From Bacillota bacterium (GTDB lineage: Bacteria > Bacillota > Dehalobacteriia > UBA4068): a stretch of DNA of 64,000 bases. The translations under genes were made by a program, and so were the position numbers. Positions 4,125-60,819 of the stretch are shown here, one piece after another (within the stretch, counting starts at the first letter, position 1; every line of letters starts with the position of its first letter). The notes beneath the pieces are model-generated. The model was not told the origin of the DNA. It saw only the letters and a program-made list of their open reading frames with translations, and ran no database searches. Location of the stretch: assembly GCA_050949225.1 (NCBI GenBank), contig JBMNFI010000001.1, forward strand, positions 132,195 through 196,194, given 5' to 3'.

Positions 4125-4153
4125 ATATTATAATTTAGTAGTTAGCATAAAGT
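4125..4153 (+). promoter_or_regulatory. Possible sigma-E-type promoter for sigK (ATATT-16-CATAAAGT)
   Basis: Partial match to the sigma-E consensus (kmATATT ... CATACA-T) about 95 nt upstream of sigK. Spacing is slightly long. Confidence 0.25.
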
Positions 4154-4246
4154 AAATTTTCCCCAAAAAATAACTCTTGCCTGCAAGCACTATGCCCAAA
4201 CCTATTGCATAAGATAAATCAATGACGCAAAAGGCAGGGGTGAGTT

Positions 4247-4963: not shown

Positions 4964-4966
4964 AAA

Positions 4967-5986: not shown

Positions 5987-6003
5987 CAGTTGCAGGAGAA
6001 TTT

Positions 6004-6546: not shown

Positions 6547-6554
6547 ATGGAAAA

Positions 6555-7190: not shown

Positions 7191-7200
7191 AAGGTGTAAA

Positions 7201-9779: not shown

Positions 9780-9817
9780 TAATATAAAGCTCCTTAATAT
9801 TTCGATAGAAAATTAAA

Positions 9818-11085: not shown

Positions 11086-11633
11086 TTGTCGGAACCTCCT
11101 GTTTGTGGTATTTTAGCAAATTGAGCCAAAGCTACATCCGCCGCCGCAAAAATTGCATCAGATGTCACAGTTGAACCGGTGATTGCTTCTATTTGCGTAG
11201 CATTTTCTTCTCCTGTACGGGTAATTTTATTTTGCTCCAGATATTGGGAAAGATATTCAGGGGTCATAACCTTAGTGCCAAGACCCGGGGTTTCCTCGTG
11301 TTCCATAACTTTAATACCGACGATTTTACCATCTTGGTCAAGTCCGGTCATTACGATAACCTCTCCGCCAAAACCCATGCCAAAAGAGGTGATGACATAG
11401 CCGCTGCCATTATTGGCGGCATAGACATCCTTGACATTTTCTAATAGTTCAAGATGTTGCTGCGTAAAGCCATCACTGCCTTCAGGAAGCACTTCTGCTC
11501 GAATCAGATCCGCATTTTTATTACTGATTTCTTCGATCAGCGGTTCTGTAAGATGGTGTGTTACAACCAGGGCCGTTGTTACAACGACACAGATTATTAA
11601 TAAAACAAATACGGGGGTGAAATATTGTTTCAT
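11082..11633 (-). CDS. rnfG: Rnf complex subunit G (FMN-binding)
   Basis: Single N-terminal TM helix plus an FMN-binding domain with a TGSTVTS covalent-flavin motif. Confidence 0.85.
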   Translation of the reverse strand: MKQYFTPVFVLLIICVVVTTALVVTHHLTEPLIEEISNKNADLIRAEVLPEGSDGFTQQHLELLENVKDVYAANNGSGYVITSFGMGFGGEVIVMTGLDQDGKIVGIKVMEHEETPGLGTKVMTPEYLSQYLEQNKITRTGEENATQIEAITGSTVTSDAIFAAADVALAQFAKIPQTGGSDK

Positions 11634-12586
11634 TCCCTAAACCCCCTTTTAAGCTTTTTACAGAAAATATTATCTATCAGCGGTACAAGAAGGTTCATAA
11701 ACAAAACCGCAAAGGAGACACCTTCGGGATAAGAACCAAAAAGACGAATAATCATTGTCAAGCCGCCGCAGCCTATACCAAAAATAGCTCTGCCCAGTAT
11801 ACTGACGGGTGAGGTGGTATAATCAGTAGCGATAAAGAAAGCGCAGAGCATGGCTCCACCGGCACAAATATGGAAAATTGGATCCTGTCCGACCAATAGA
11901 GAAATTACTGTTATTGTTCCCAAAAAGGAGAGGGGTATCACAGGGTGAACAACTTTTCTGATGACTAAGTAAACACCGCCGATAAGTAGCGCCAAAGCGC
12001 AGGTTTCACCTAAAGATCCACCGATAAACCCTAAAAACATTTCCATATTTGAAGGGATCAACTCTAATTTGTCCATGGCCAGTAATGCCAAAGGGGTGGA
12101 GCCCGTTACAGCATTTATGCCATGAGGTAGTGGGATCAACCAACTAGTCATGGGGGTAGAAAAGGATAACAATAAAACCACACGGGCAGTGTTAGCCGGG
12201 TTGACAAAATTTTGTCCCAGTCCACCAAAAAGCTGTTTAACAATAACAATAGCGACAAAGCAGCCAATAATAGCCATCCAGAAAGGAAGGGTGGAAGGTA
12301 GACAAAAAGCCAACAGTATTCCTGTTACGACGGCGCTTAAGTCGGAGATCGTGTTAACACGTTTGGTTATCTTTCTGAATAAAAATTCAAATAAAAGACA
12401 AAATGCGACGCAAAGCAACGTCATGATAATAGCTCGTGAACCAAAAATTACCCCAGACATTACAAAAGCCGGCATTAATGCAATAATTACATCTAACATA
12501 ATTTTTCGGGTGCTTTGATTGCTGGTGATATGGGGTGCAGCATTAATTAGCAGGCGAGGGGATAATTGAGGGTTCATTTGAATCAT
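11630..12586 (-). CDS. rnfD: Rnf complex subunit D
   Basis: 318-aa membrane protein of the NqrB/RnfD family, in position. Confidence 0.85.
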   Translation of the reverse strand: MIQMNPQLSPRLLINAAPHITSNQSTRKIMLDVIIALMPAFVMSGVIFGSRAIIMTLLCVAFCLLFEFLFRKITKRVNTISDLSAVVTGILLAFCLPSTLPFWMAIIGCFVAIVIVKQLFGGLGQNFVNPANTARVVLLLSFSTPMTSWLIPLPHGINAVTGSTPLALLAMDKLELIPSNMEMFLGFIGGSLGETCALALLIGGVYLVIRKVVHPVIPLSFLGTITVISLLVGQDPIFHICAGGAMLCAFFIATDYTTSPVSILGRAIFGIGCGGLTMIIRLFGSYPEGVSFAVLFMNLLVPLIDNIFCKKLKRGFRE

Positions 12587-13896
12587 GATGGTTGCTCTCC
12601 TTTCCTAACCAATTCTTTAGCGGCACTATTGATAAAGGAAACCTGTATCTTGGCAGGACAAACATAAGAGCAACAGCCACACTCTATGCATAAAAGGGTA
12701 TCATGTTCTAAAAGTTCATCCAGATCCCCCTTTTTATAAGCTTTATTAATCTTCATCGGATAAAGACCCATAGGGCATGCAAAAGCACAGCGTGCGCAAT
12801 TTATGCAGGCACTCTCTTTTGGTAAATAGGCCCAGGTTTCATCGAAAACCAAAATAGCATTGTTGTGTTTAATAATAGGCGTTTGATCACTGTAAATAGA
12901 GCGCCCCATCATAGGGCCGCCCATAATAATTTTACGGGGCTTTTTTTTGTAACCGCCGCAAAACTCTATCACATCCATAATAAGGGTGCCAATCAGCACC
13001 TCTATATTTTTAGGATTAGAGACGGCAGGTCCATCGACAGTAATTTTTTTACTAATCAAGGGCATGCCGGTTTTAAGATAGTTTCCCAGTGTTTCGACAG
13101 TTGTAATATTGGAAACGATTACGCCAATATCGGCCGGCAGATGTCCTAAAGTAAGGATCTTACCGGTTGTTTCATAAATCAGAACACGTTCAGCCCCTTG
13201 GGGATAATCATTACGCAGGGGGACAATCTTTATTTGGGGTAAATCCCGACTGAGTTCCCGGAATTTTTCAATGGCAGCAGGTTTATTTTTTTCGATACCG
13301 ATATAACAGTTGGCGATCTCTAAATAATTCATTATTTCTTTGATGCCATGGAAAATATTTTCACTTTCTTCCATCATGTTACGATAATCGGAGGTTATAA
13401 ATGGTTCACATTCGGCACCATTGATAATTAAGGTATCAACCTCATGAAGGTTTTTAGGGCTATATTTAACATGGGCAGGAAAGGCAGCACCACCTAAACC
13501 AACCAGCCCACAATTACGAACTGCTTGTAAAAATTGTTCGTGATTGTTTATCTTTGGTGGTTTGATGGTAGGATGTATATCTTGTTGCCCATCCGGCTTA
13601 ATGATAACCACTTCGTTAGAAATACCTGAGGCTGCCAGAATTTTATCAATATCTATTACTTCACCGGAGACACTGGAATGAATGGGCGATGAGATCAACT
13701 CTTTGCTGTCGCCAATGATTTGCCCTACTTTTACTGTGTCACCTACTTTTACCAGTGGCGTACAGGATTTTCCAATGTGTTGTGACATGGAGATAACAAT
13801 TTTATGTGGTACAGGCATTTTTTCAGTTGCCAGGTTCATGGTATTTTTGTAATGAGGCAAATTAATAGAGGGTAGTCTCCTTTTGAAAATAGTCAT
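12583..13896 (-). CDS. rnfC: Rnf complex subunit C (NADH-binding, 2x[4Fe-4S])
   Basis: GAGGAAFP NADH-binding motif and two CxxCxxCxxxCP clusters. First gene of the operon. Confidence 0.9.
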   Translation of the reverse strand: MTIFKRRLPSINLPHYKNTMNLATEKMPVPHKIVISMSQHIGKSCTPLVKVGDTVKVGQIIGDSKELISSPIHSSVSGEVIDIDKILAASGISNEVVIIKPDGQQDIHPTIKPPKINNHEQFLQAVRNCGLVGLGGAAFPAHVKYSPKNLHEVDTLIINGAECEPFITSDYRNMMEESENIFHGIKEIMNYLEIANCYIGIEKNKPAAIEKFRELSRDLPQIKIVPLRNDYPQGAERVLIYETTGKILTLGHLPADIGVIVSNITTVETLGNYLKTGMPLISKKITVDGPAVSNPKNIEVLIGTLIMDVIEFCGGYKKKPRKIIMGGPMMGRSIYSDQTPIIKHNNAILVFDETWAYLPKESACINCARCAFACPMGLYPMKINKAYKKGDLDELLEHDTLLCIECGCCSYVCPAKIQVSFINSAAKELVRKGEQPS

Positions 13897-14129: not shown

Positions 14130-14204
14130 TGGTACGCCTGATAGGAATCGAACCTACGCATCCGGCTCCGGAGGCCGGTGCTCTATCCACTGAGCTACAG
14201 GCGC
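14130..14204 (-). tRNA. tRNA-Arg (anticodon CCG)
   Basis: The reverse complement folds as a cloverleaf: acceptor GCGCCTG/CAGGCGT, D-arm, anticodon stem CCGGC/GCCGG with loop CTCCGGA, T-arm GGTTCGATTCC, encoded CCA end. Confidence 0.85.
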
Positions 14205-30346: not shown

Positions 30347-30445
30347 ATTACTGTTATGTTGCTATACCGCTCCGAAAAGGTTGAAAGTACCGTTTAGGTC
30401 ACCTTGGTCGGGCGAGTCTATATAGTAGGGGAGGTGCAACGATTA
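30347..30445 (+). ncRNA. Putative ribosomal-protein L21 leader (cis-regulatory 5'UTR)
   Basis: About 100-nt GC-enriched leader between promoter and rplU (GGTCACCTTGGTCGGGCGAG). L21-leader structures are known in Firmicutes. Confidence 0.35.
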
Positions 30446-30757
30446 ATGTATGCAATCATTGAAACAGGTGGCAAGCAATACAAAGTTAATCAAGGGGATG
30501 TCTTAAAAGTAGAGCTTTTAACAGCTGAAACAGGTGAAACTTTAACGATTGATAAAGTTTTAGCCGTTTCGGATGGCAAAAGTACCACTATTGGCAGTCC
30601 TTATGTTGATGGTGCGGCGGTTGAATGCAAGGTTTTGGAACATGGTAAAAATAAAAAAGTTGTGGTGTTCAGATATAAACCAAAGAAAAATGTCCGGGTT
30701 AAAAAAGGACACCGTCAACCATTTACTAAACTGGAAATTACCGGTATTACTGTTTAA
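30446..30757 (+). CDS. rplU: 50S ribosomal protein L21
   Basis: [15 protein letters not shown]-terminus. The real start is the internal Met of the listed ORF. Confidence 0.9.
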
Positions 30758-30797
30758 AAATAATTAAAATTTTCCTTATAAGAGGAGGTGGGATATA

Positions 30798-31061
30798 ATG
30801 GCTCAAAAGAAAGCCGGAGGTAGTTCGCGTAATGGTCGCGATAGTCAGTCGAAACGACTGGGATTAAAAAGTCATGATGGGCAAATGATCTCGGCCGGTA
30901 CCATTATTGTTCGCCAAAGAGGAACTAAATTTCATCCTGGTAATAATGTTGGTATTGGTAAAGATGATACACTGTTTGCTAAAGTAGATGGTCAAGTAAT
31001 GTTTGAAAGAAAAAGTCGGGAAAAGAAACAGGTCAGTGTTTATCCCGTGCAAGCTGTTTAA
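30798..31061 (+). CDS. rpmA: 50S ribosomal protein L27 (no N-terminal propeptide)
   Basis: [22 protein letters not shown] resembles mature E. coli-type L27. No prp/ysxB gene lies between rplU and rpmA. Confidence 0.9.
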
Positions 31062-34082: not shown

Positions 34083-34133
34083 AATGCTCTGAAAAGGGTA
34101 ATGTATAAATATGCAAACTTACTTATGCTAACT

Positions 34134-34209
34134 GTGGATAAGTTGTGGATAAAAAATGTAAAATTGTGCTTGACAAGATAAATGGCCAGCTAGAGGTGCT
34201 GTGGATTTA
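34134..34209. promoter_or_regulatory. DnaA-box cluster: two perfect tandem TGTGGATAA boxes (34134-34142, 34145-34153) plus a 1-mismatch box TGTGGATTT (34201-34209)
   Basis: These are exact reverse complements of the DnaA-box consensus TTATCCACA. They are 2 nt apart in the rsfS-ilvA intergenic region. Confidence 0.55.
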
Positions 34210-34461
34210 AACAAAGAAAATGTGGAAAAAACAGCATAAAAAAATGTTGAAATACGAGTTTTGACTACATTTTAGAGGACTTTTGTTATAAAATAAGTTT
34301 TTTTTGTAAGGAAACTGCTTATAAAGATGGTGGAAGTTAATTCGTTATTAAATGCCAGTATTTTACAGTTTTCGACTAAGGGGTACATAAATTTTCATGA
34401 TATACAGAGCTAATGAGCCAAAATGTCGCTTATTGGTGAAAAAAACTTTAAGGAGTAGATA

Positions 34462-41817: not shown

Positions 41818-42717
41818 ATGGCTGATAGTGAAATAACAAATATCAATTGGTATCCCGGACATATGGTTAAGGGTAAGCGTAATATCGCTGCCGATTTACG
41901 GCGCATTGACGTTTTGATTGAGGTTTTGGATGCACGGGCACCAAAAAGCAGCCGTAATCCAGATTTGTCTAACATTAATGGGCAGAAAAAACCACATGTA
42001 TTGGTACTAAATAAAGCTGATTTAGCGGATGCCGAAGCAACCAAAAAATGGCTTGCCTTCTATCGCCGCCGTGGTTATCAGGCGGTTGCCGTGAACGCTG
42101 TGCAAAAACGAGGGATTAAGGAGCTTTTGGCAGCTGTTAACAGGGCTGCTGAGCCTTTATTGCAAAAGCTGGCTGACAAAGGCCGTTTGAGCAGACCAGT
42201 AAGGGCGATGGTGGTCGGTATTCCCAATAGTGGCAAATCAACGGTGATTAATGCTTTTTGTCCGGCAAAAACTGTTAAAACCGGTAATATGCCAGGTGTC
42301 ACCAGAGGCCAGCAATGGGTAAAAACTACCGCAGGCATCGAGCTTTTGGATACCCCCGGTGTTTTGTGGCCTAGATTTGCTGATTATCGGACGGCTTTTA
42401 ATTTGGCGGTAATCGGCTCTATTAGTGATTTGGTTTATCCTTATGAAAAAATTGCTCAAGAATTAGCAGAGCTGCTTTTAGAAAAAAATCCTCAAGCCCT
42501 TCAAGATCGTTTTAAGCTTAGTGAACTTCCGGTAGATGGTAGACAATTAATTACGGCAATTGGCAAAAGGCGGGGACTTTTGGCCGCCGGTGGTCGAGTT
42601 CGTATGGAGGATTCTTCATTATTGCTGCTGCGAGAGTTTCGGGCGGGTCTTTTGGGCAGATATACATTGGATGATAAAAGGGATGATAAAAAGGACGATC
42701 AGCATATAAATGATTAA
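41818..42717 (+). CDS. rbgA: Ribosome biogenesis GTPase A (YlqF)
   Basis: Circularly permuted GTPase: G4 NKADL precedes G1 GIPNSGKST. 299 aa. Confidence 0.85.
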   Translation: MADSEITNINWYPGHMVKGKRNIAADLRRIDVLIEVLDARAPKSSRNPDLSNINGQKKPHVLVLNKADLADAEATKKWLAFYRRRGYQAVAVNAVQKRGIKELLAAVNRAAEPLLQKLADKGRLSRPVRAMVVGIPNSGKSTVINAFCPAKTVKTGNMPGVTRGQQWVKTTAGIELLDTPGVLWPRFADYRTAFNLAVIGSISDLVYPYEKIAQELAELLLEKNPQALQDRFKLSELPVDGRQLITAIGKRRGLLAAGGRVRMEDSSLLLLREFRAGLLGRYTLDDKRDDKKDDQHIND

Positions 42718-42762
42718 AGGTTTTTATGAGGTATTTTAATAATGAAGTAAAGGTTGTGATAA

Positions 42763-43539
42763 ATGATGAATAAACGTGAACAAGTTAAAATAGCTCGGGA
42801 ATTGCTTGATTCCTTTAATCTCCCGGATGAAACTGTGCAAGAGCTCTTAGAAAGCCCTGTTGATAAAGTCAGAAGTTTGACTCGAAAGTTTTTAGAAAAA
42901 AAGGCGCAGGAAGAGGATCGTTTATTGCATATGAGCTTATATGAAAAGCAGCTTTGGCGTAAAGGTGTTTCTTTGGTCGCCGGTGTTGACGAGGCAGGTT
43001 GTGGTCCTTTGGCCGGCCCGGTAATAGCTGCCGCTGTGATTTTGCCTCAAGACTGTTTTTTATGGGGTATTGACGACTCTAAAAAACTTTCCGCAAAAAA
43101 ACGGCTTATTTTGGAGCAGGAGATTAAAGAAAAGGCACTCTGTTGGATGATCTTTGGCGTAAATCATCGTTATATTGACCGTTATAATATTTTGCAGGCG
43201 CGCTTGATCGCTATGCGTAAGGCTATTAATCGTTTGCCATGTGCTCCGGAGCATCTTTTAATTGACGGTAACATGGCTTTGTCGATCGACACCCCGCAAA
43301 CATTGATTAATAAAGGGGATGGTAAAAGCATCTCTATTGCGGCGGCTTCTATCATGGCTAAATGTGCTCGGGATCGTATAATGGTTAAAATGGCGAAGCT
43401 TTTTCCTGAATATGGCTTTGAAGTTAATAAAGGATATCCCACTGCTTATCACAGAGCCGCCATTGAAGAATTTGGTTTATCACCTATTCATCGTCGGAGT
43501 TTTAAGATTAAAAAACTTGCCGAAGGTGAAAATAAATGA
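42763..43539 (+). CDS. rnhB: Ribonuclease HII
   Basis: GVDEAGCGPLAGPV catalytic motif. Conserved rbgA-rnhB adjacency. Confidence 0.85.
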   Translation: MMNKREQVKIARELLDSFNLPDETVQELLESPVDKVRSLTRKFLEKKAQEEDRLLHMSLYEKQLWRKGVSLVAGVDEAGCGPLAGPVIAAAVILPQDCFLWGIDDSKKLSAKKRLILEQEIKEKALCWMIFGVNHRYIDRYNILQARLIAMRKAINRLPCAPEHLLIDGNMALSIDTPQTLINKGDGKSISIAAASIMAKCARDRIMVKMAKLFPEYGFEVNKGYPTAYHRAAIEEFGLSPIHRRSFKIKKLAEGENK

Positions 43540-43886
43540 CAGATTCCCGACTTAAAACCGGCAGGGATGGCGAAGAGATGGCTGTGCTGGCTTTAGAAAA
43601 ACGTGGCTATCAAATTATCGAGCGAAATTTTCGCCGACGTGAGGGCGAAATAGATATTATTGCAGTTAAAAATAATTGTCTATACTTTGTGGAAGTGCGA
43701 ACCAGACGCGGTGGCGGTTTTGGTCGTGCGGTGGAGAGTGTGAATCGCCAAAAAAGACTGCAGATGCAACGGATTGCAGAAATTTATTTAGCCGAGTTAG
43801 GTAGGGAAATTAACTGTGAATTTTTGGTGATTGCAATTGACCTAGCTGCTGATCAGTTGGAGATAATTAGTGATTTGTTGGTTTAA
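43536..43886 (+). CDS. yraN: YraN-family (UPF0102) endonuclease-like protein
   Basis: 116 aa, GEIDII motif, conserved after rnhB. Confidence 0.75.
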   Translation: MTDSRLKTGRDGEEMAVLALEKRGYQIIERNFRRREGEIDIIAVKNNCLYFVEVRTRRGGGFGRAVESVNRQKRLQMQRIAEIYLAELGREINCEFLVIAIDLAADQLEIISDLLV

Positions 43887-43980
43887 AAGCCAGCTTTACT
43901 ATGTGCAGTATTATTTTTTATCTAAAGCAGCAAGATAAGATTTGTATGATATTATGATGTCTTTAGCAAGTTGATGAAGG

Positions 43981-44010
43981 TTGCTATTTATTTGCCGGAT
44001 GTGTTATAAT
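43981..44010 (+). promoter_or_regulatory. Candidate promoter for the OLE-like RNA (TTGCTA-18-TGtTATAAT)
   Basis: Extended -10 with consensus TATAAT, about 45 nt upstream of where GC-rich structured sequence begins. Confidence 0.35.
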
Positions 44011-44054
44011 TGTAAAACTAATTATATCTTGACAAATTATAATATGTAATGAAG

Positions 44055-44665
44055 TTTGTTAGGATGTGGCGCAGTATTCTAGTCGGTAGGCTTTTTACTG
44101 AAGGCGGGCCTAAAAATCCGTCACGGGCACATCGATGAAGTTTCTGGTGCTGGCTTTCGACGCCCAGTTGAGGGCTGGTGCTGGGAGTTAAGGAAGATGG
44201 GGCAAGCTGCAAAGGCATGTGGCGATTGACCCCGCTTCCGTGGAGACCCAAATACGTGGAGATCTGTCTTGGTCGGACAGAAAAGCTACGGTTTGGGATT
44301 AAACCTGTATGCGGCGTTTAGTTGTGTACAGCGTAGCCTGCCTTGAGTGGTAGTGGTGGATTCATAAAGACACCTACAAGATTCCTTCGACCAAAAGGGA
44401 TCGGTAGGTGATGAAACCGCGATTGCAAAAGAGGCTAGGTAAATTGCCGATCCGTCGAGGAAAACTCCTAGACTGTATACACCTATTGGGGATTAAAGTA
44501 TAGGCTAAGTGGCAATCCGGCCCTGTATTGGGAAACCTTACAGATCGAAACTTAAAGGGAAACCGCCTGTTTGGTAACAGCAGGTTGATTCGATGGGAAA
44601 TCCTGCCGGACCTAAGCTATAGAGTTTACTCAGTAGGAGACCATATTCTAACTTTTTAATCGATA
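44055..44665 (+). ncRNA. ole: Large structured noncoding RNA, best explained as OLE (ornate, large, extremophilic) RNA
   Basis: About 600 nt with no ORF over 30 codons on either strand. Markedly GC-rich with many short complementary segments, in an otherwise AT-rich genome. Lies directly upstream of a small 4-TM protein followed by dxs-tlyA-nadK-argR-recN, the conserved OLE/oapA context. Boundaries are approximate. Confidence 0.6.
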
Positions 44666-44676
44666 ACTGGAGTTGA

Positions 44677-45309
44677 ATGTTTTTGAAGTCAAATAAAAGC
44701 AGCGGCCGACGAAGGCGCGTTGTTAAATATGCGATATTTTCGGGTTTGATCACTTTTTTGATCGCTTGTGCCATGAATATCAATTCGCAATTTTTCCTCA
44801 CCGAAATGAAGTCAGTGTCTATCTCCTTATTTTTATTGCTGGCTGTCATACTTGTGGGGATTATTTTTGATATTATTGGTGTGGCGGTGGCAGTGGCCAA
44901 TCCGGCTTCTTTTAATGCCAGCTCCGCTCGAAAAATCCCCGGCTCTACACAGGCCTTGCGTTTGATTAACAACAGCAGCAGGGTCGCTAATATTTGCTGT
45001 GACATGATGGGTGATATTTGCGGTACTGTTAGTGGTGGTATGGGGGTAGGGATTATCATCCTTTTGCCATGGGCTAAAGACCCACAGCAAGCTATTATCG
45101 CTACAATGTTAATGTCCGGAATGGTTGCCGCAATAACTGTCGGCGGTAAAGCACTCAGCAAAGATTATTCAATTAATAAAGCCGATAAAGTTATGTTGAT
45201 GGTGGGTCGCTTCATTGCTTTCTTTGAGGAAATTTTTATCTCTCAAAAAAAGCGTTCTCAGGGTTGGGGCACACAAGGTAAAAACAATGAAAAAGGTAAA
45301 GGTAGATAA
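44677..45309 (+). CDS. oapA: OLE-associated protein A-like small membrane protein
   Basis: 210 aa with four predicted TM helices, a Gly/Met-rich segment and a basic C-terminus. GGAG RBS. Sits between the structured RNA and dxs. Confidence 0.55.
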   Translation: MFLKSNKSSGRRRRVVKYAIFSGLITFLIACAMNINSQFFLTEMKSVSISLFLLLAVILVGIIFDIIGVAVAVANPASFNASSARKIPGSTQALRLINNSSRVANICCDMMGDICGTVSGGMGVGIIILLPWAKDPQQAIIATMLMSGMVAAITVGGKALSKDYSINKADKVMLMVGRFIAFFEEIFISQKKRSQGWGTQGKNNEKGKGR

Positions 45310-45318: not shown

Positions 45319-47253
45319 ATGGTTAAAAAATATTTAAATAATAAAATAAATAAAGCGGTAACGACTGACGTGACGGAAAAAATTTTACCAAAAATCAACA
45401 GTCCTGCCGATCTTAAGAATTTGTCCTCGGCACAGCTGCAAAGTTTGGCTGAGGAAATTCGTCTTTATATAATTGACGTAGTAGCGGAAAACGGCGGTCA
45501 TTTAGCGCCTAGTTTAGGTGTTGTTGAGCTGACTATTGCTTTACACAGGGTGCTTGATGTGCCCACTGATAAACTGATTTGGGATGTGGGTCATCAGGTT
45601 TATGCACATAAAATTATCACCGGACGCCGAGAAAAATTTCATACTTTGCGAGCTTATGAAGGATTAAGCGGTTTTCCTAAGCGAGAGGAAAGCCCGGCAG
45701 ATCCCTTTGGTGCAGGCCATGCCAGCACGGCACTTTCTGCTGCTTTGGCTTTTGCTAAAGCACGTGATATAAAAAAGGAAAATTATCGAGTGGCCGCTGT
45801 GGTCGGCGATGGTGCTTTTACAGGTGGTTTATCATATGAAGCGCTATGTCATTGTGGTGATTTGGGCAGTAATATGCTGATCATTTTAAATGATAATGAA
45901 ATGTCCATTGACAGTAATGTTGGTGCCATGTCTAATTATCTGATGAAAATTCGTACCAGCCGACATTATACAGACAGTAAACAAGAATTGGAAAATCTTT
46001 TACGGAAAATTCCTCAGCTTGGACCTTTAGTAGCCGAAAATCTCAAAAAACTTAAGGACAGTTTTAAGCATCTCTGGCTGCCCGGTATGATTTTTGAAGA
46101 ACTGGGTATTTTTTATTTAGGGCCTGTAAATGGCCATGATATTGCAGCTATTGAAGGGGCCTTGATGCGTGCAAAAACGATTAAAGGTCCGGTGCTTTTG
46201 CATGTCTTAACGACTAAAGGCAAAGGATATTTGCCAGCAGAAATCAATCCGGATGTTTTTCATGGTACGGGAGCCTTTCATATTGGCACCGGACAGGCAA
46301 AAAAAATGCCGCCCCCTTTTACCTACAGCAGTGTTTTTGGTGATGCCATGTGCAAAATGGCAGCCGAAAATGAAAATATTGTGGCAGTAACGGCGGCCAT
46401 GACAAGCGGAACAGGTTTGTTGAATTTTTTTGCCCAATATCCTGAACGATCTTTTGATGTGGGAATCGCCGAAGGGCATGCCGTTACCTTTGCGGCGGGC
46501 TTAGCAGCCGCCGGTCTGCATCCGGTAGTGGCTATTTATTCCACCTTTATGCAACGAGCTTATGACAATATTTTACATGATGTTTGTTTACAAAAACTGC
46601 CGGTTATTTTGGCGCTGGATCGTGCCGGTTTGGTTGGTGATGATGGACCGACACATCATGGAGTTTTTGATATTGCTTATTTAAGCAGCATTCCTAATTT
46701 GATTATTATGGCTCCAATGGATGAAAATGAGTTACAATCGATGCTTAGAGCAGCTGTTTCCTATCAGGCACCGGTCGCAATTCGCTATCCGCGGGGAAGC
46801 AGTGGTTTGGAGACTTTGAGTGCAGAAACTGTTTCTATTCCGCTTGGCAAAGGCCAAATACTAGTGCCGGGTGATGATTTGACAATTATTGCTTGCGGTT
46901 CCATGGTTGCTGTCGCTTTAGAAGTTGCTGATATATTATCTAACAAAAACATCTCGGCTGAAGTAATAAATGCACGCTTTATTGCACCTTTGGATCAAGA
47001 ATTATTACTAAAATCAGCTACTAAAACTCGGCGGGTTTTAACCTTGGAAGAAGGCATAAAAAAGGGTGGTTTAGGTGAGGCCTGTGCCGAACTGCTGCGG
47101 CAAGAAATGACAGAAAACTCGGCAGAAGTAGAAATCGGCGCCCTGCCCAATAGCTTTATTGCTCAGGGTAAAAAAGAATTATTGTTGGATGATTGTAATT
47201 TAACTCCGCCTGCATTGGTGAAAAAGGTTTGCCAACGCTGGTTTAACAAGTAG
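45319..47253 (+). CDS. dxs: 1-deoxy-D-xylulose-5-phosphate synthase
   Basis: TPP motif GDGAFTGGLSYEAL...NDN and a transketolase-like C-terminal domain. 644 aa. Confidence 0.9.
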   Translation: MVKKYLNNKINKAVTTDVTEKILPKINSPADLKNLSSAQLQSLAEEIRLYIIDVVAENGGHLAPSLGVVELTIALHRVLDVPTDKLIWDVGHQVYAHKIITGRREKFHTLRAYEGLSGFPKREESPADPFGAGHASTALSAALAFAKARDIKKENYRVAAVVGDGAFTGGLSYEALCHCGDLGSNMLIILNDNEMSIDSNVGAMSNYLMKIRTSRHYTDSKQELENLLRKIPQLGPLVAENLKKLKDSFKHLWLPGMIFEELGIFYLGPVNGHDIAAIEGALMRAKTIKGPVLLHVLTTKGKGYLPAEINPDVFHGTGAFHIGTGQAKKMPPPFTYSSVFGDAMCKMAAENENIVAVTAAMTSGTGLLNFFAQYPERSFDVGIAEGHAVTFAAGLAAAGLHPVVAIYSTFMQRAYDNILHDVCLQKLPVILALDRAGLVGDDGPTHHGVFDIAYLSSIPNLIIMAPMDENELQSMLRAAVSYQAPVAIRYPRGSSGLETLSAETVSIPLGKGQILVPGDDLTIIACGSMVAVALEVADILSNKNISAEVINARFIAPLDQELLLKSATKTRRVLTLEEGIKKGGLGEACAELLRQEMTENSAEVEIGALPNSFIAQGKKELLLDDCNLTPPALVKKVCQRWFNK

Positions 47254-47263
47254 GAAGGTTTTT

Positions 47264-48094
47264 ATGGCAGAGAAAAAAAGATTAGACATTCTTTTAGTAG
47301 AAAAAGGGTTTTTTCCTGCCCGTGAAAAGGCTAAGGCAGCTATTATGGCAGGAGAGGTTTTGGTGGATGGCAAGCGAGTCGATAAAGCTGGTTCAGCCAC
47401 TGAATTAGGGGCAAAAATCCAGGTAAAAAGTAAAGAGTTGCCTTATGTTTCACGAGGCGGCTTAAAATTGGCCAAGGCACTGGATGTTTTTGCCGTTGAC
47501 CCAAATGGCATGACTGTTTTAGACATTGGTTCTTCCACAGGGGGATTTGTAGATTGTGCTCTGCAAGCCGGGGCCGCTAAGGTCTATGCTGTGGATGTGG
47601 GTTATGGACAGTTGGCCTGGAAACTGCGACAAGATGAGCGGGTAGTAGTTTTGGAAAAAACCAATGCGCGCTATTTAACTATTGAAGATATTCCGGAAAA
47701 AATTGATCTGATCACGGTTGATGTGTCCTTTATTTCTTTACATAAGGTTTTACCGTCGGCCTTAGAGTTTTTGTCGCCGACCGGTTTACTAATTGCCTTG
47801 GTCAAGCCCCAATTTGAGGCAGGTAAGGACAAGGTGGGAAAAAAAGGTGTAATACGTGATCGCAAAATACATCAAGAAGTTCTGGAAAAAGTGTTAAAGG
47901 ATTTGCTGATGCTAAAAATGCAGTCGCTTAATTTAGATTTTTCCCCGATAACCGGAGCGGAAGGCAATATCGAATATTTACTTCTGGCACAAAAAATTAA
48001 CGAAGAAAGCTCTTTATCTTATATTTATGCAGAAATGATGGAACGGTTAAAAATATCTGAAATAATTGATAAATCATGGTCAACACATAGATAA
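47264..48094 (+). CDS. tlyA: TlyA-family rRNA 2'-O-methyltransferase (S4 + FtsJ-like domain)
   Basis: N-terminal S4 domain (RLDILLVEKGF) and SAM-binding DIGSSTGGF. Confidence 0.85.
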   Translation: MAEKKRLDILLVEKGFFPAREKAKAAIMAGEVLVDGKRVDKAGSATELGAKIQVKSKELPYVSRGGLKLAKALDVFAVDPNGMTVLDIGSSTGGFVDCALQAGAAKVYAVDVGYGQLAWKLRQDERVVVLEKTNARYLTIEDIPEKIDLITVDVSFISLHKVLPSALEFLSPTGLLIALVKPQFEAGKDKVGKKGVIRDRKIHQEVLEKVLKDLLMLKMQSLNLDFSPITGAEGNIEYLLLAQKINEESSLSYIYAEMMERLKISEIIDKSWSTHR

Positions 48095-48125
48095 TACAAA
48101 TATAAAATTTATTTTATATTTGTAT
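48094..48125. repeat. Perfect AT-rich palindrome ATACAAATATAAAAT-tt-ATTTTATATTTGTAT
   Basis: 15-bp inverted repeat arms separated by 2 nt. Starts at the tlyA stop and abuts the -35 of the nadK promoter. Confidence 0.6.
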
Positions 48126-48127
48126 AG

Positions 48128-48156
48128 TTGCATATTTTTATAAAATATGGTATATT
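48128..48156 (+). promoter_or_regulatory. Sigma-A promoter for nadK (TTGCAT-17-TATATT)
   Basis: Near-consensus hexamers about 40 nt upstream of nadK. Confidence 0.5.
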
Positions 48157-48197
48157 ACTTCCATGTAATGTAAATATTATTAAGTTAGGAAATTTTC

Positions 48198-49043
48198 ATG
48201 GCTAATTTTTTTACAGTAATAGTTAATCATAAAAAGCAACAAAATATTTTGTATGCAGAAAAAATAGTTGCTTATTTAAAAAAAAGGGGTGCTGAATTAC
48301 TCCTCCCTGATAATGCCTCCGGCTATAATCTTGATAATTGTCAAAATATCGATTTTTCGGGTATCAGTGCTGCTATTGTTCTGGGCGGTGATGGGACTAT
48401 TCTGGCGGCCTCTAAAATTTTCAGCAAATTTTCCATACCGATGGTAGGCATTAATATGGGCAATTTGGGCTTTTTATCGGCTGTAGAAAAAGCGGATATT
48501 TATCCGGCTTTAGATAAATTATTGGCCGGCGATTATTTTTCAGAAGATCGCATGATGCTTACGGGAAAAGTTAAAAAAACTGATGGCGGCGAAATAGAGC
48601 TACTTGCTTTAAATGAGCTGGTCGTAAATAATAGCTTTTATACCAGAACTATTGCTCTTGATTTATTGATTAATGATAATAAAATCAGGTCCTGTAACTC
48701 AGATGGTATAATTGTGGCTACGCCTACCGGTTCTACCGCTTATTCCTTTTCGGCCGGCGGTCCTTTAGTTGATCCCGCTTTAAAAGTCATTTTAGTTAAT
48801 TTTATTTGTCCGCATAGTTTTTTAAATCGTCCCATGGTTGTTGCGGACAACAGTATCGTTAAAATAACTTTATCCGGTGTTGATTTGGAAGGAGCTAAAT
48901 TAACGGCGGATGGTCAAGCCTCTTATGTTTTAAAAAAAGGGGATGCGATTACGATACAAAAGGCCCTCTATACTAGTAAATTAATACGTTTTGCTCCCGT
49001 TAATTTTTTTAATCGGGTTAGTGATAAGTTGAATAAACAGTAA
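48198..49043 (+). CDS. nadK: NAD kinase
   Basis: GGDGT motif and NELVV motif. 281 aa. Confidence 0.9.
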   Translation: MANFFTVIVNHKKQQNILYAEKIVAYLKKRGAELLLPDNASGYNLDNCQNIDFSGISAAIVLGGDGTILAASKIFSKFSIPMVGINMGNLGFLSAVEKADIYPALDKLLAGDYFSEDRMMLTGKVKKTDGGEIELLALNELVVNNSFYTRTIALDLLINDNKIRSCNSDGIIVATPTGSTAYSFSAGGPLVDPALKVILVNFICPHSFLNRPMVVADNSIVKITLSGVDLEGAKLTADGQASYVLKKGDAITIQKALYTSKLIRFAPVNFFNRVSDKLNKQ

Positions 49044-49070
49044 AGAAGACCGTTAGTTTGACAAAAAGGA

Positions 49071-49535
49071 GTGTGCAAGATGATAAAAAATCGCAGGCAT
49101 AAAATGATTCGTGAAATCGTTGAAAACAAAAATATTGAGACTCAATTTCAGTTAACTGATGAATTGAAAAAGTATGGTTTTAATGTCACGCAGGCGACTA
49201 TTTCTCGTGATATTAAGGAATTAGGCTTGATCAAAGTGGCCTCCGGGGAAGACTTTTTCCGTTATAGTTTCCCTCCCGGCAGCATGACCGGCAATATTTT
49301 TGAAAGAGCGAAAAAAATGCTTAGGGATAACATGTTGCGCATAAATAAAAGCAATAATCTAATAATTATGCGTACCTTGCCGGGTACCGCACAAGGTGTG
49401 GCTTTTTGTATTGATAGTTTAACCTGGAAAGAGGTTCTGGGAACGATTGCCGGTGATGATACCATTATGGTGATCGTCAAGGAAAGTGAAGATATTCAAG
49501 AAGTAATTGATCGTTTACAGTCTTTAGCGCAGTAA
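49071..49535 (+). CDS. argR: Arginine repressor
   Basis: N-terminal winged helix (QATISRDIKELGLIK) and C-terminal oligomerisation domain (GTIAGDDTIMV). About 150 aa. Confidence 0.85.
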   Translation: MCKMIKNRRHKMIREIVENKNIETQFQLTDELKKYGFNVTQATISRDIKELGLIKVASGEDFFRYSFPPGSMTGNIFERAKKMLRDNMLRINKSNNLIIMRTLPGTAQGVAFCIDSLTWKEVLGTIAGDDTIMVIVKESEDIQEVIDRLQSLAQ

Positions 49536-49557
49536 CCTTTGAATAAGAGGCTAGATT

Positions 49558-51222
49558 ATGTTGCAAGAAATATATGTAGAAAATTTTACATTAATGAAAT
49601 CCCTGCATTTACCATTAAGTCAGGGATTTAATGCTTTATCAGGAGAGACGGGTGCCGGTAAATCACTATTAATTGATGCGATTTCTTTAATTATTGGTGG
49701 ACGGGGCAGTGAAGACTTTATCCGTAGCGGACAAAAAAGGTGCTTAGTGGAAGGGGTTTTTACGGCACCTTTCCCGGAACAGTTGCAGGATTTATTGACG
49801 GAAAAAGGTCATGAAATTGGCTCGGATGACTTAGTTTTGACAAGAGAGCTTAATCGCTCCGGCAAAAGTGTTGCGCGAATTAATGGCCGTGTGGTTAATC
49901 TATCCTTTTTACGTACAATAGGAAGGATGCTGGTCAATATTCACGGACAAATGGAGCATATGCTGATACTGGAAGAAGAACATCAGTTACAGCTTTTAGA
50001 CAGCTTTGGCGGCCGGCAGCTTTTGGCTGTGAAAAAACAACTGGCGGATTGCTATCATAGTTATCAAAAGTGGCAAAAAAAACTGCAGGACTATGAAAAG
50101 CGTCAACAAGAGGCGCTGCAAAAGGTGGATTTTCTTTCGTATCAGATAAAAGAAATTGAAGAGGCGCGGCTAAGTCCCGGGGAAGAGGAAACGCTCACCA
50201 AAAAACTACTGCAGCTGACTTATGCAGAAGAGCTGCAGGAGTCTGCTGCGCGGGGTTATGAATTTTTAAATGGCCAGCAACGGGCCTTGGAATATCTGGC
50301 CGAAACGCAGCAAGAATTGAAAAATATTTATGAGCACGATGAAGATTTTCTGGAGATTTACGAAAGACTGTCCAATGCTTATTATGAAGTGGAAGATATC
50401 GCTCGGGAGTTAAATAGCTATGGGCAAAAGATCATTGTTGATCATCAGGCGCTGCTTGATACAGAAGAGCGTTTGACTTTAATCAAGGATTTAGAAAAAA
50501 AATATGGCACTGACATAGATGAAATTTTGCAATTTGCTCTTGATGCTCAACAAGAGTTGGAAAAATGGCAAAACTGGGAAGAGGATGGTAAAACAGCCGC
50601 ACAAGAGTTGGAAAAAGAACAAAACAAGTGTCTGGAGCTGGCGCAAAAATTAAGTAGTTTACGCAAGCTGGCGGCGGAAGAATTATCCCATGCTATTACC
50701 ACGGAGCTGCAGCTTTTATCGATGCCGCAGGCCATTTTTAAAGTGCAGTTAGTGCCGCAGGAAATCTCGGCTCAGGGATTGGAAAAAGTTACATTTATGA
50801 TTCAGGCCAACGTGGGAGAGAAGTTTAAATCGGTAGAAAAAACTGCTTCCGGCGGTGAACTTTCACGTATTATTTTGGCGATAAAGGTTATTTTGGCACA
50901 ATTAGATCAGGTGCCTACTTTGATTTTTGATGAAGTGGATAGTGGTCTGGGCGGCATGGCTTTGGAAAGAGTGACAGAGCGGATCAAAAAAATTGCTCAA
51001 TATGCCCAGGTTTTAACAATTACTCATGCCCCTTTGATGGCCGCTGCAGCTACGCATCATTTACATATTTACAAGGAAGTAAGTGCAGGTAAAACTATCA
51101 TTAAATGTGAAGTTTTAGATAAAAACAGAAGGATCCAAGAGCTAGCGCGTATGATTGCCGGGGAAAAAATAACCGACTCAACGATTAAGCAAGCTAAAGA
51201 ATGGATCGAGGGGAACGTATAG
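49558..51222 (+). CDS. recN: DNA repair protein RecN
   Basis: N-terminal Walker A GETGAGKS, long coiled-coil, C-terminal signature SGGELSRI plus Walker B LIFDEVDSG. 554 aa. Confidence 0.9.
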   Translation: MLQEIYVENFTLMKSLHLPLSQGFNALSGETGAGKSLLIDAISLIIGGRGSEDFIRSGQKRCLVEGVFTAPFPEQLQDLLTEKGHEIGSDDLVLTRELNRSGKSVARINGRVVNLSFLRTIGRMLVNIHGQMEHMLILEEEHQLQLLDSFGGRQLLAVKKQLADCYHSYQKWQKKLQDYEKRQQEALQKVDFLSYQIKEIEEARLSPGEEETLTKKLLQLTYAEELQESAARGYEFLNGQQRALEYLAETQQELKNIYEHDEDFLEIYERLSNAYYEVEDIARELNSYGQKIIVDHQALLDTEERLTLIKDLEKKYGTDIDEILQFALDAQQELEKWQNWEEDGKTAAQELEKEQNKCLELAQKLSSLRKLAAEELSHAITTELQLLSMPQAIFKVQLVPQEISAQGLEKVTFMIQANVGEKFKSVEKTASGGELSRIILAIKVILAQLDQVPTLIFDEVDSGLGGMALERVTERIKKIAQYAQVLTITHAPLMAAAATHHLHIYKEVSAGKTIIKCEVLDKNRRIQELARMIAGEKITDSTIKQAKEWIEGNV

Positions 51223-53716: not shown

Positions 53717-53745
53717 TTATTACGTTGTATTTTCGTCCATTCAGA

Positions 53746-53768
53746 GCCCGGCTTTTAGGCCGGGTTTT
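53746..53768 (+). terminator. Intrinsic terminator after spo0A
   Basis: CCCGGC-TTTTAG-GCCGGG followed by TTTT. Confidence 0.7.
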
Positions 53769-54038
53769 AGCTTGTTTTAGATGTCTAATAACAAGTTAAG
53801 CACATGAGAAAACTTCAAAACCTGCAGCATATATACTGACAAGGCTCCATGGCTTGCTTTTATAATAAATATATGTTATATTTAATTCAGAACATCCAAG
53901 TTTTAAGGAATTTAACTATTACCTAACAGCGAGGATTTATATTAAACTTTTTCTTACGTTTTTGGGCTATTCCAAAAGGCGAGATATGGTTGATATATAC
54001 ACGGACTTTGCTCTGTGATTGGTAGTGATGCAATCATG

Positions 54039-54068
54039 TTCCTCTGCTAGGTGGGTAGAGGAATTTTT
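54039..54068 (+). terminator. Intrinsic terminator in the hyd-maturase 5' region (TTCCTCT-11 nt loop-AGAGGAA + TTTTT)
   Basis: Perfect 7-bp stem with a T5 tract, 65 nt upstream of the TM1266-like gene start. Confidence 0.55.
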
Positions 54069-54134
54069 AATATCCGGATTAGATATAAAAATTATCTCTT
54101 CTCAAGAGATTAATGAAGATTATAGGAGGTTATA

Positions 54135-54380
54135 ATGGAAACCAGATTAGCAATTATTAGTATTATCGTGGAAAATCGCATTAATGCAGAGTCGATTAAT
54201 GTGTTGCTACATAAGTATGAACAATATATTGTTGGACGTATGGGCATGCCTTATGAAAAAAAGGATTTGGCCATTATTTGTATCTTAATTGATGCACCGG
54301 AGGATATTATCAGTGGCGTCTCCGGGAAATTGGGCATGCTGCAGGGTGTTAGTGTTAAAACAACTTATTCAAAAAAATAA
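54135..54380 (+). CDS. TM1266-family small ACT-like regulator associated with [FeFe]-hydrogenase maturation (TIGR03959-like)
   Basis: 81 aa with pattern RLAIISIIVENR...GRMGMPYEKKDLAIICILIDAP...LSGKLGMLQGVSVK. Immediately upstream of hydE with strong RBS AGGAGG. Confidence 0.6.
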   Translation: METRLAIISIIVENRINAESINVLLHKYEQYIVGRMGMPYEKKDLAIICILIDAPEDIISGVSGKLGMLQGVSVKTTYSKK

Positions 54381-54385
54381 ATGAG

Positions 54386-55459
54386 GTGAGCGGCATGAAA
54401 AACAAAGCTTTACTGGATAAATTGCTGAAGCAAAAAACCTTAAAGCCAACGGAAATGTTAAGTCTTTTGACTGATTATGATCCGGAGGATCGTCTATATG
54501 CTGCCAGCTTAGCGCGGAAAGTAACTCGTCAGAATTTTACCAATCTCATTTATACGCGAGGCTTAATCGAGATGACTAACTATTGTAAAAACGACTGTCT
54601 TTATTGTGGTATTCGCGTGAGTAATAAAAAGATCAGCCGCTATCGTTTAACTAAGGATGATATTATGTCTTGTTGCGCTAAAGGTTATGAATTGGGTTTT
54701 CGTACTTTTGTTTTACAAGGTGGAGAAGATCCTTATTATTCTGATGAGCTTTTAACTGATATTGTGAAAACAATCAGACAAAAATATCAAAATTGTGCAA
54801 TTACTTTGTCTTTAGGGGAAAGATCTGCTGAAAGTTATCAAAAATTGTTTTCCGCCGGGGCTAACCGTTATTTGTTACGCCATGAAACGGCCAATAAGCA
54901 GCATTATCATCAATTACATGATGGTAAGTTATCATTTGACAAGCGTAGAGAATGCCTGCAAACACTGCGGGAGATTGGTTTTCAAACCGGTTGTGGTTTG
55001 ATGATCGGTTCACCATATCAGAGTAAAGAAGACTTGGTGGAGGATCTCTTTTTCATGGAAGCCTTTCGGCCGCACATGATCGGGGTCGGTCCTTTTATCC
55101 CTCATCATGATACACCGTTTAAGGACTTTCCGGCCGGCAGTGCTGAAGAAACCACTTATTTTATCAGCATTCTGCGCATGATGCATCCATATGCTTTAAT
55201 CCCCGCTACGACGGCACTGGGAACGATTAAAGAGGATGGCAGAGAAACGGGTATTTTATCCGGCTGTAATATAGTGATGCCGAATCTTTCGCCACTGAAT
55301 GTGCGCGAAAAATACATGCTTTATGATAACAAAATCAGCTCTGGTGCGGAAGCGGCCGAAAGTTTATCTCTCTTGTCCGAGCGGATGCAAAAAATTGGCT
55401 ATAAACTTGCTGTGGACAGGGGAGATTATACAGGCAAAACTATCGTAAATAGCGCTTAA
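54386..55459 (+). CDS. hydE: [FeFe]-hydrogenase H-cluster radical SAM maturase HydE (BioB-like fold)
   Basis: CKNDCLYCGIR Cx3Cx2C motif about 65 aa from the N-terminus. 357 aa, BioB/HydE-like length and layout. Call supported by the adjacent TM1266-type gene. Confidence 0.6.
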   Translation: MSGMKNKALLDKLLKQKTLKPTEMLSLLTDYDPEDRLYAASLARKVTRQNFTNLIYTRGLIEMTNYCKNDCLYCGIRVSNKKISRYRLTKDDIMSCCAKGYELGFRTFVLQGGEDPYYSDELLTDIVKTIRQKYQNCAITLSLGERSAESYQKLFSAGANRYLLRHETANKQHYHQLHDGKLSFDKRRECLQTLREIGFQTGCGLMIGSPYQSKEDLVEDLFFMEAFRPHMIGVGPFIPHHDTPFKDFPAGSAEETTYFISILRMMHPYALIPATTALGTIKEDGRETGILSGCNIVMPNLSPLNVREKYMLYDNKISSGAEAAESLSLLSERMQKIGYKLAVDRGDYTGKTIVNSA

Positions 55460-59946: not shown

Positions 59947-60819
59947 ATGAAAAGATTTTTAGTTTTAGTGGTTATTTGTGTTTTAGCTTGTACTTTGATG
60001 GCTTGTTCTAATGGTTCAGGGGATACTAATCCTCAAGAAGAAAGCACTGTCACGGATATTGATAAAATAAAGGTTGATACCAGTGATATGGTCAAAGAAG
60101 AAGTTACGGTGCTGGGACATATTTACTTTGACATGTATCCGCAGCGAGCGGCATTTTTTGGTGCCGAAGAAAGTGAAATCGCGACACTTGCCAATAAGAT
60201 GGCGCAATACATTGATGAGCAAAGTAAAGATGTCAAAAATGAAACGATTATTGGATACCTTAATGACTTCAAAAATTTCTATAAAGCTATTGAAGCATAT
60301 GCCTCTGATATGGAGAATACGGATAAAGAGCAGGCAGCGCAAGTATCAGCAACTAAAGCGGCAGAAAATCTACCGCAGGTGCGAGGTATCTGTAACAATT
60401 TTGAAGTACCATGGGTATATTTTTGGCAAGAACAATTTACCCAAGATGGCGTTTATTTTGCCTTCAATAAAAAAGACACTGAAAAAATAACCGATGAAAA
60501 TGGTTCTGATTCCGGTTTGGTGGCTCTGTCAATTGATGTTTCCGGTAAATGTATTTCTTCTACCGGTCCTTATGGTGAATATCTGATCAATTTTGATTTA
60601 CATGATGCAATGTCTGATAAAATTTACAAACTGGAACAGCAGTATATTCAGCCTAAAACAATCTTAGAGACCAATATTCAAATACAACAAAAGGCCCGCG
60701 CTATTTTAACTTATCATGTGCCGAAAAATCTTACACATTATATCTTAGTTCAAGATACCTGTCCTTGGTCAAAAAAGGAAAACAGATACATCAGAATGGC
60801 CAGCTACAGCATGTTTTAA
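59947..60819 (+). CDS. Hypothetical lipoprotein
   Basis: Signal peptide with lipobox LMAC-S. 290 aa. No recognisable domain. Confidence 0.55.
   Translation: MKRFLVLVVICVLACTLMACSNGSGDTNPQEESTVTDIDKIKVDTSDMVKEEVTVLGHIYFDMYPQRAAFFGAEESEIATLANKMAQYIDEQSKDVKNETIIGYLNDFKNFYKAIEAYASDMENTDKEQAAQVSATKAAENLPQVRGICNNFEVPWVYFWQEQFTQDGVYFAFNKKDTEKITDENGSDSGLVALSIDVSGKCISSTGPYGEYLINFDLHDAMSDKIYKLEQQYIQPKTILETNIQIQQKARAILTYHVPKNLTHYILVQDTCPWSKKENRYIRMASYSMF

Follow-up and report, generated by a model that had tools for sequence, protein, structure and literature searches.

Evidence for a full-length OLE RNA gene followed by oapA in the genome of an uncultured anaerobic member of the Bacillota

The window analysed here is a stretch of 64,000 nucleotides (nt) from the genome of a member of the Bacillota (GTDB lineage Dehalobacteriia, UBA4068; GenBank assembly GCA_050949225.1, contig JBMNFI010000001.1, positions 132,195 to 196,194 of the forward strand); all coordinates given below are those of the window unless another locus is named. 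Between the stop codon of yraN (43886) and an open reading frame (ORF) of 210 amino acids (aa) that begins at 44677 lies a gap of 790 nt (43887–44676). The original prediction had placed in this gap an ornate, large, extremophilic (OLE) RNA, a member of a family that is among the largest of the bacterial non-coding RNAs, and had taken the ORF downstream to encode its protein partner, OapA. The features at the centre of the locus are the following:

43981–44010, + strand: promoter-like site composed of a −35 element TTGCTA (43981–43986), an 18-nt spacer and an extended −10 element TGTTATAAT (44002–44010), detected in a consensus scan
44050–44660, + strand: OLE RNA gene, 611 nt, a full-length match to the Rfam model RF01071, further supported by conserved columns, covariation and a folding z-score
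44669–44672, + strand: Shine–Dalgarno-like GGAG, with a spacing of 4 nt to the ATG at 44677 and of 10 nt to the TTG at 44683
44677–45309, + strand: oapA, specifying a four-helix membrane protein of 210 aa from the ATG, or of 208 aa from TTG 44683 (the start used by the Joint Genome Institute, JGI)

Taken together, the evidence allows us to assign 44050–44660 as a full-length OLE RNA gene, and 44677–45309 as the gene for its membrane partner OapA, with high confidence. OLE has been known since 2006 and is included in Rfam; one 2024 survey listed 2,822 representatives (PMC11332333). When the OLE covariance model RF01071, whose gathering threshold is 50 bits, was compared with 44050–44660 (+ strand), the match covered model positions 1–616 of 616 and reached 474.5 bits (E = 3.8e-136), in agreement with the family identity that had been predicted. 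The extent that had been foreseen (∼600 nt, at about 44055–44665) also agreed well with that of the model match and with the core of the RNA bounded by helix P1, which spans 44064–44646 (583 nt). A scan of the whole window against Rfam at E 0.05 returned no families besides OLE, a tRNA-Arg(CCG) and an L21 leader. Since P7, P8 and P9 were all detected, the RNA belongs to the 'full-length' OLE type rather than to variants 1 or 2 (PMC11332333), the reduced forms described by Fernando and Breaker (PMC11332333).

The window RNA was compared with 31 OLEs from other species, in which 226 columns are conserved at ≥90%. It agrees with them at 221 of these columns, and two of the five mismatches (44502 G>A and 44618 C>U) were found to be the two sides of one compensatory pair. 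Its identity was 82% to the nearest of the compared sequences and 56–70% to the remaining ones. The RF01071 scores of the relatives were mostly 430–558 bits, so that the 474.5 bits recorded for the window are on the low side. Weaker matches were seen in two relatives, namely in locus L055 (3303–3912, 345 bits) and in locus L053 (3469–3949, 211 bits); the latter copy, of just 481 nt, is probably a reduced OLE variant of the kind reported in PMC11332333.

The gap was found to be as poor in coding sequences as had been claimed: its ORFs were short or shadow ORFs only (one of 77 aa on the − strand, and two of 47 and 43 aa on the + strand), and the JGI gene calls on identical metagenome contigs included none within the 790 nt. 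The original prediction had also described the last ∼600 nt of the gap as conspicuously GC-rich and highly structured. The enrichment in GC is real (48.1% at 44050–44660, compared with a window average of 40.0% and with 27% in the spacer at 43887–44049, and with a maximum of 55.5% at 44100–44299), but it is moderate in size. The claim about structure stood in full: the minimum free energy of the OLE region was −235.5 kcal/mol, compared with −187 ± 6 kcal/mol for 20 dinucleotide shuffles (z = −7.98), and the helices were backed by covariation, as detailed below.

The RF01071 structure was projected onto the window, and an alignment was used that contained the window RNA and 31 OLE RNAs from other Bacillota species. 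Both partners were present for 151 of the 159 pairs in the model, and 137 of these 151 were canonical in the window; the non-canonical pairs were concentrated at the apices of the P7 and P9 arms, which are variable. Over the 32 OLEs, standard pairs occupied 86.1% of the sequence-by-pair cells, compared with 39–47% when the 3′ partners were slid by 1–3 columns, while changes on both sides were recorded in 112 of the 151 pairs, compared with 57–81 in the slid controls. None of 500 shuffles attained the observed pairing and covariation values. An alignment check for helices supported by covariation, as had been suggested along with the OLE assignment, thus gave a clear positive result. The structural elements are listed below in 5′ to 3′ order:

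44064–44069, + strand: 5′ strand of helix P1, AUGUGG, pairing with 44641–44646; outside the Rfam model, and present also in the minimum-free-energy fold
44125–44140, + strand: joining region J4a/5, GGGCACAUCGAUGAAG, with nearly all positions invariant in the 32 OLEs
44141–44187, + strand: P5/P5.1, a long hairpin of 20 bp with the loop GCCCA, directly after J4a/5 (Rfam alignment)
44192–44239, + strand: P6 hairpin, two stacked helices and an internal loop (helices 3 and 4, 87.9% and 99.4% paired, respectively)
44247–44297, + strand: P7 stem (helix 5), of a length that varies among species (Rfam alignment and fold)
44305–44331, + strand: P8 hairpin (helix 6), 90.6% paired, with 10 of 12 pairs changed on both sides
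44340–44435, + strand: P9 multi-stem arm (helices 8–14), which contains the P9.3 hairpin
44380–44402, + strand: P9.3 hairpin, with the loop CGACCAA at 44388–44394
44457–44467, + strand: small conserved hairpin GAGGAAAACUC (helix 15), 100% paired
44480–44639, + strand: 3′ domain, nested long-range helices around P13 and P14/P14.1 (helices 17–22)
44523–44543, + strand: P13 hairpin, with the GNRA tetraloop GAAA (44532–44535) and, in agreement with the model consensus, one bulged U (44528)
44565–44585, + strand: P14.1 hairpin, with the GNRA tetraloop GUAA (44574–44577)
44641–44646, + strand: 3′ strand of helix P1, CCAUAU, pairing with 44064–44069

In helix P1, 94.3% of the cells were paired (≤59% in the slid controls) and five of the six pairs had changed on both sides. 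Helix 2 (P5/P5.1) was 95.3% paired, with both sides changed in 11 of its 20 pairs, and helices 17–19 of the 3′ domain were 97.5–100% paired, with both-sided changes in 17 of 21 pairs. At the apex of P7 the window has a local hairpin (CUGUC/GACAG, loop UUGGUCG) in place of the pairing in the model, a feature common to three relatives, loci L001, L002 and L007.

These results bear on the idea that the gap codes for small proteins, for example the 77-aa ORF at 44018–44251 (− strand), and that its structure is incidental. Mechanical ORFs of 43–77 aa do occur there; however, none was picked by the gene caller applied to the JGI contigs, the substitutions across the 32 species keep base pairs and not codons, and the match of the region to a curated family of RNAs has the very low E-value given above. 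We give this possibility practically no weight, and a protein-coding gap was rejected. The stretch that protein-only gene calls leave empty should be annotated as an OLE gene, and the adjoining 'hypothetical protein' downstream as OapA.

Default scans of the 210-aa ORF against Pfam and NCBIfam produced no match, and a sequence search of the PDB gave chance matches only (an antibody light chain and NusA, E ≥ 0.2). The protein had 620 homologues, mostly unnamed, in a large protein collection. When one genome of each species was then scanned, 567 loci encoding a relative were found, of which the best 80 were kept (tblastn E-values of the homologue-bearing loci, 6e-78 to 7e-30), and Rfam was run on 34. 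In 32 of the 34 loci tested, an OLE RNA of the same orientation immediately preceded the protein match and ended ∼10–270 nt before it. As OapA is operationally defined by this adjacency to OLE, the 210-aa protein was assigned to this family. The identity of the window OapA to most relatives was 31–48%, rising to 62% for the nearest metagenome-assembled genome (MAG).

The properties of the protein agree with those described for OapA in the literature (PMC12265935, PMC11332333). A hydropathy scan, in which overlapping windows were merged, delimited four hydrophobic segments (at about residues 14–42, 39–81, 110–133 and 137–159), and an AlphaFold2 model showed long helices matching them, as expected for the four-helix membrane protein that had been postulated. 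The six best Foldseek matches of the model were all CNNM/CorB/CorC transporters. A DxxxD motif, considered distinctive of OapA and lacking in CNNM domains (PMC11332333), is present as DMMGD at residues 109–113; an alignment of 26 family members showed no variation at D109, G112 and D113, and the inner two positions of the motif are M in about five of the 26 (including that of the window) and V, I or A in the others. Basic residues are found at R11–R14 (RRRR) and K17, at the invariant K158 and K162, and in a K/R-rich tail (191–210). The comparison with OapA that had been called for was therefore favourable, in view of the position of the family directly 3′ of OLE, the DxxxD motif and the CNNM-like fold, and we conclude that the 210-aa protein is an OapA-type, CNNM-like four-helix membrane protein. 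The downstream gene was also found to have a ribosome-binding site of its own, as had been stated, in the GGAG at 44669–44672. A covariance-model match, a conserved structure and an OapA-family protein, the three things on which the OLE assignment had been said to depend, were thus all found.

An identity of the protein as MpfA or CorB was considered and rejected. With only 210 aa, it gave a Pfam CNNM match, the best of its sub-threshold matches at a permissive E-value, of 17.8 bits for a threshold of 28.4 bits, and no CBS or CorC match; the lack of CBS and CorC domains is the reason why OapA was not filed under MpfA/CorB. The occurrence of MpfA has been reported to be anticorrelated with that of OLE (PMC11332333).

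In two loci from Desulfosporosinus, L040 (D. metallidurans, 1–8576) and L075 (Desulfosporosinus sp., 1–8573), the oapA homologue is followed by dxs-tlyA-nadK-argR, and OLE was not found in these 8.5-kb loci even at an Rfam E-value of 0.01. The ORFs upstream of oapA in L040 are tightly packed (oapA begins at 3992, shortly after the end, at 3963, of an ORF of 152 aa), leaving no space for an RNA of 600 nt. It follows that oapA occurs without an adjacent ole in Desulfosporosinus.

Several elements of the window RNA correspond to sites at which the OLE RNA of Halalkalibacterium halodurans contacts its partners. OapB of that species needs a GNRA loop together with a single-nucleotide bulge, P13 being the primary site and P14.1 a weak secondary one (PMC7936274). 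In the window, the bulged U of P13 is three positions 5′ of the GAAA loop, and by analogy P13 would be the OapB-binding site. The J4a/5 region of the H. halodurans RNA is a kink turn bound by OapC (PMC9723947, PMC12286853). At the sequence level, kink-turn geometry apart, J4a/5, J5/6 and J6/7 of the window agree with the family consensus, and a kink turn would be expected to form at J4a/5 here as well.

The window RNA departs from most of the family at two places. A palindromic tetranucleotide in loop L9.3 has been proposed to provide a symmetric RNA–RNA kissing contact in the OLE dimer (PMC12286853); across the 29 OLEs that have this hairpin, it is GGCC in 23 and AGCU in one. The corresponding tetranucleotide in the window is GACC. 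A shifted palindrome, UCGA, is found at 44387–44390, one base 5′ of the aligned position, and makes use of the predicted closing U. Loci L001 and L007 have the same L9.3 as the window (GACC/UCGA), and L002 has UUGA. If the shifted UCGA still makes an RNA–RNA contact, it would represent an independent covariation event favouring homodimerisation of OLE in vivo; divergent but intact OLEs such as this one add some comparative power for the analysis of tertiary and quaternary contacts, the L9.3 kissing loop among them. The second departure is the replacement of the hairpin at RF01071 positions ∼425–436, between GAGGAAAACUC and the 3′ domain, by AUA at 44468–44479. The same hairpin is missing in L001, L002, L007, L027 and L055.

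The comparatively low RF01071 score, the missing small hairpin and the missing GGCC palindrome are what one might expect if the RNA were a decaying, non-functional OLE relic, retained through its linkage to dxs. We regard such a scenario as highly improbable. The RNA keeps 221 of the 226 conserved positions and 137 of the 151 pairs, with changes that are compensatory; the hairpin is absent from five other species as well, and the closest relatives carry the same features, which together point to a clade variant under selection; and oapA is intact and retains its invariant residues. Because conserved positions, pairs and oapA have all been maintained, the relic was rejected as an explanation. 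The locus is a typical, intact ole-oapA pair of a well-described family, with minor clade-specific variation.

Some observations do weigh against the OLE–OapA assignment. The promoter at 43981–44010 is a consensus match only. The CNNM match of OapA remained below the Pfam threshold, and the AlphaFold2 model of the protein is of medium confidence (predicted local distance difference test score, 77.5). The L9.3 tetranucleotide of the window, GACC, is non-palindromic, and the only palindrome available is the shifted UCGA. Finally, when Pfam was run on all ORFs of the 64-kb window, none of oapB (ybzG, with a KOW motif), oapC (ybxF, of the L7Ae family) and rpsU (bS21) was found.

The site at 43981–44010 corresponds to the TGnTATAAT promoter that had been noted before the RNA, and the scan adds to it the TTGCTA at the 18-nt spacing. 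Transcription from it is predicted to start ∼45 nt upstream of helix P1. Extended −10 promoter-like sites were also present just 5′ of OLE in L001 (2045–2085), L002 (3329–3370) and L007 (3317–3353). In the window, 53 nt separate the −10 element from P1; in these three relatives the interval is 10–13 nt. The extra AT-rich stretch of the window holds a second TATAAT (44038–44043), which lacks a good −35 element. The recurrence of these sites suggests that OLE has a transcription start of its own in the clade formed by the window, L001, L002 and L007. Between the end of P1 (44646) and the start of oapA (44677) there are 30 nt, and a terminator scan of 44647–44676 found none. This makes co-transcription of ole and oapA, with later processing of the transcript, the likely arrangement.

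An arrangement of this kind might also be taken to indicate that the main role of the structured region is one in cis, namely that of a long 5′ leader with riboswitch-like control of oapA-dxs, and not that of a scaffold for a trans-acting ribonucleoprotein (RNP): P1 ends close to oapA with no terminator in between, the RNA is immediately preceded by a promoter-like site in four related genomes, and co-transcription with oapA is likely. We nevertheless judge this unlikely, and clearly so. The RNA belongs fully to the OLE family, and the OLE of the model species binds OapA, OapB and OapC, is located at the membrane and, jointly with OapA, is required for the phenotypes observed (PMC12265935, PMC9723947, PMC7936274). 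Moreover, its 583 nt and ∼150 conserved pairs far exceed those of any known leader, and no expression platform is visible, there being neither a terminator nor a helix that would sequester the ribosome-binding site.

A role in an OLE RNP is therefore preferred over control in cis. The OLE RNP of H. halodurans is membrane-bound and supports stress adaptation and Mg2+ homeostasis (PMC12265935, PMC10898510, PMC12286853); by analogy, the window RNA most likely forms a membrane-bound RNP of the same kind. Starting from the family membership, the covarying fold, the OapB- and OapC-binding elements and the identity of OapA established for the window, the functional steps can be drawn by homology with H. 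halodurans and with the cryo-electron microscopy work on the Clostridium RNA. The RNA would be transcribed together with oapA and dxs from the sigma-A-type promoter at 43981–44010, and possibly also by read-through from yraN, and would accumulate as a stable species of about 580–600 nt that folds into a homodimer. OapA would bind it cooperatively and, as dimers, tether it to the cytoplasmic membrane, in which the RNA itself may be inserted, as proposed in 2025. The small RNA-binding proteins that would then join are bS21, OapB, which would sit at the GNRA loop and bulge of P13, and OapC, which would occupy the kink turn next to P5. A particle assembled in this way would aid growth in the cold, in the presence of short-chain alcohols or excess Mg2+, and on poor carbon sources, and would probably exert this effect through modulation of OapA, which is a putative transporter of divalent cations and whose cation flux it may control.

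The genes around the pair, as identified with Pfam and NCBIfam, are in the order YlqF, RNase HII, YraN, OLE RNA, 210-aa ORF, Dxs, TlyA, NadK, ArgR, RecN and SpoIVB. Those that follow oapA form the following block:

45319–51222, + strand: dxs, tlyA, nadK, argR and recN (Pfam, NCBIfam); genomic context, not components of the RNP

A literature search for a gene-by-gene account of OLE neighbours found none, and the neighbours were instead counted in the retrieved loci. Of the 32 loci with an OLE, 28 have Dxs and TlyA after oapA, with NadK and ArgR next where the fetched flank extends that far, so that the downstream half of the neighbourhood that had been described as conserved is indeed common to most relatives. 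On the upstream side, the gene next to OLE specifies a polyprenyl synthetase (IspA) in 20 of the 32 relatives, and is usually preceded by ORFs of the size of xseB and xseA; in three further relatives a DUF212 gene is directly upstream of OLE. A Pfam search of the window ORFs revealed no ispA or xseAB. The presence of yraN upstream of OLE was limited to the window (ylqF-rnhB-yraN at 41818–43886), L001, L002 and L007. It is possible, though we would put it a little short of probable, that these four represent a Peptococcaceae-related clade with a distinct type of OLE locus, characterised by ylqF-rnhB-yraN upstream, a conserved extended −10 promoter of its own, the missing hairpin and the replacement of the GGCC of L9.3 by a shifted UCGA (UUGA in L002). 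Beyond its correct annotation the locus matters little, as it opens no new question relative to the thousands of OLE genes already catalogued.

Spore-forming anaerobic Bacillota are the usual home of OLE. The window contains the sporulation genes spoIVB, spo0A, spoVT, yabP and yabQ, and, as markers of an anaerobe, genes for an Rnf complex and for [FeFe]-hydrogenase maturation. The exact OapA sequence was found only on JGI metagenome contigs; the nearest loci belong to Bacillota/Peptococcaceae MAGs, and the nearest species-level genome among the retrieved loci is the one showing 62% identity in OapA and 82% in OLE. Together, the sporulation, Rnf and hydrogenase genes and the nearest MAGs point to an uncultured host from the Bacillota, spore-forming and anaerobic, that is close to Peptococcaceae-type MAGs.

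Further features were noted elsewhere in the window. A six-gene operon for an Rnf-type complex is found at 8943–13896 (− strand), and a TM1266-like [FeFe]-hydrogenase regulator lies beside a radical SAM gene at 54135–55459 (+ strand); both point to a strictly anaerobic lifestyle. The tRNA-Arg(CCG), a single gene at 14130–14204 (− strand), is located between the rnf operon and a gene for a 936-aa exonuclease-helicase (DinG-like). The L21 leader precedes rplU at 30356–30429, with a score of 36.9 bits for a threshold of 36; since the mechanical start of rplU (30404) overlaps this leader, the true start is probably further downstream. The rpmA gene follows 40 nt after rplU (30404–31061), with no gene for a ysxB-like protease in between. 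Two gaps of ∼380–420 nt, before the threonine dehydratase gene (34083–34461) and before the TM1266-like gene (53717–54134), had no match in Rfam, and a 290-aa ORF at 59947–60819 had none in Pfam.

Compared with the full-length OLE RNAs of H. halodurans and Clostridium, the window RNA has the same length (∼600 nt), the complete set of helices (P1, P5–P9, P10 and the 3′ domain), conserved joining sequences, and the GNRA loops of P13 and P14.1 with the single-nucleotide bulge of P13; oapA is directly downstream, followed by dxs-tlyA-nadK-argR-recN, and the host is likewise a Gram-positive, spore-forming anaerobe. It differs from most OLE loci in having ylqF-rnhB-yraN upstream, where 20 of the 32 relatives have (xseA-xseB-)ispA, and from most OLE RNAs in lacking the small variable hairpin after GAGGAAAACUC and in having GACC/UCGA instead of GGCC in L9.3; unlike its closest relatives, it has 53 nt and not 10–13 nt between the promoter-like site and P1. 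The protein resembles known OapA in its small size (210 aa), its four hydrophobic helices, the DxxxD motif, the basic N-terminal cluster and K/R-rich C-terminal tail, and the position of its gene after ole. Its predicted fold is closest to the transmembrane domain of CorB/CorC; in contrast to MpfA, CorB and CorC, however, it has no CBS pair or CorC/HlyC domains, has four helices rather than three, and bears a DxxxD motif, which is absent from CNNM domains (PMC11332333). Among other RNAs, OLE is comparable to GOLLD, ROOL, the raiA motif and HEARO in being a large, highly structured non-coding RNA discovered by comparative genomics, and GOLLD and ROOL form homo-oligomers, as does OLE (PMC12286853). 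The folds and genomic contexts of these RNAs are nevertheless unrelated to those of OLE, and it is OLE alone that the region matches in Rfam at E 0.05.

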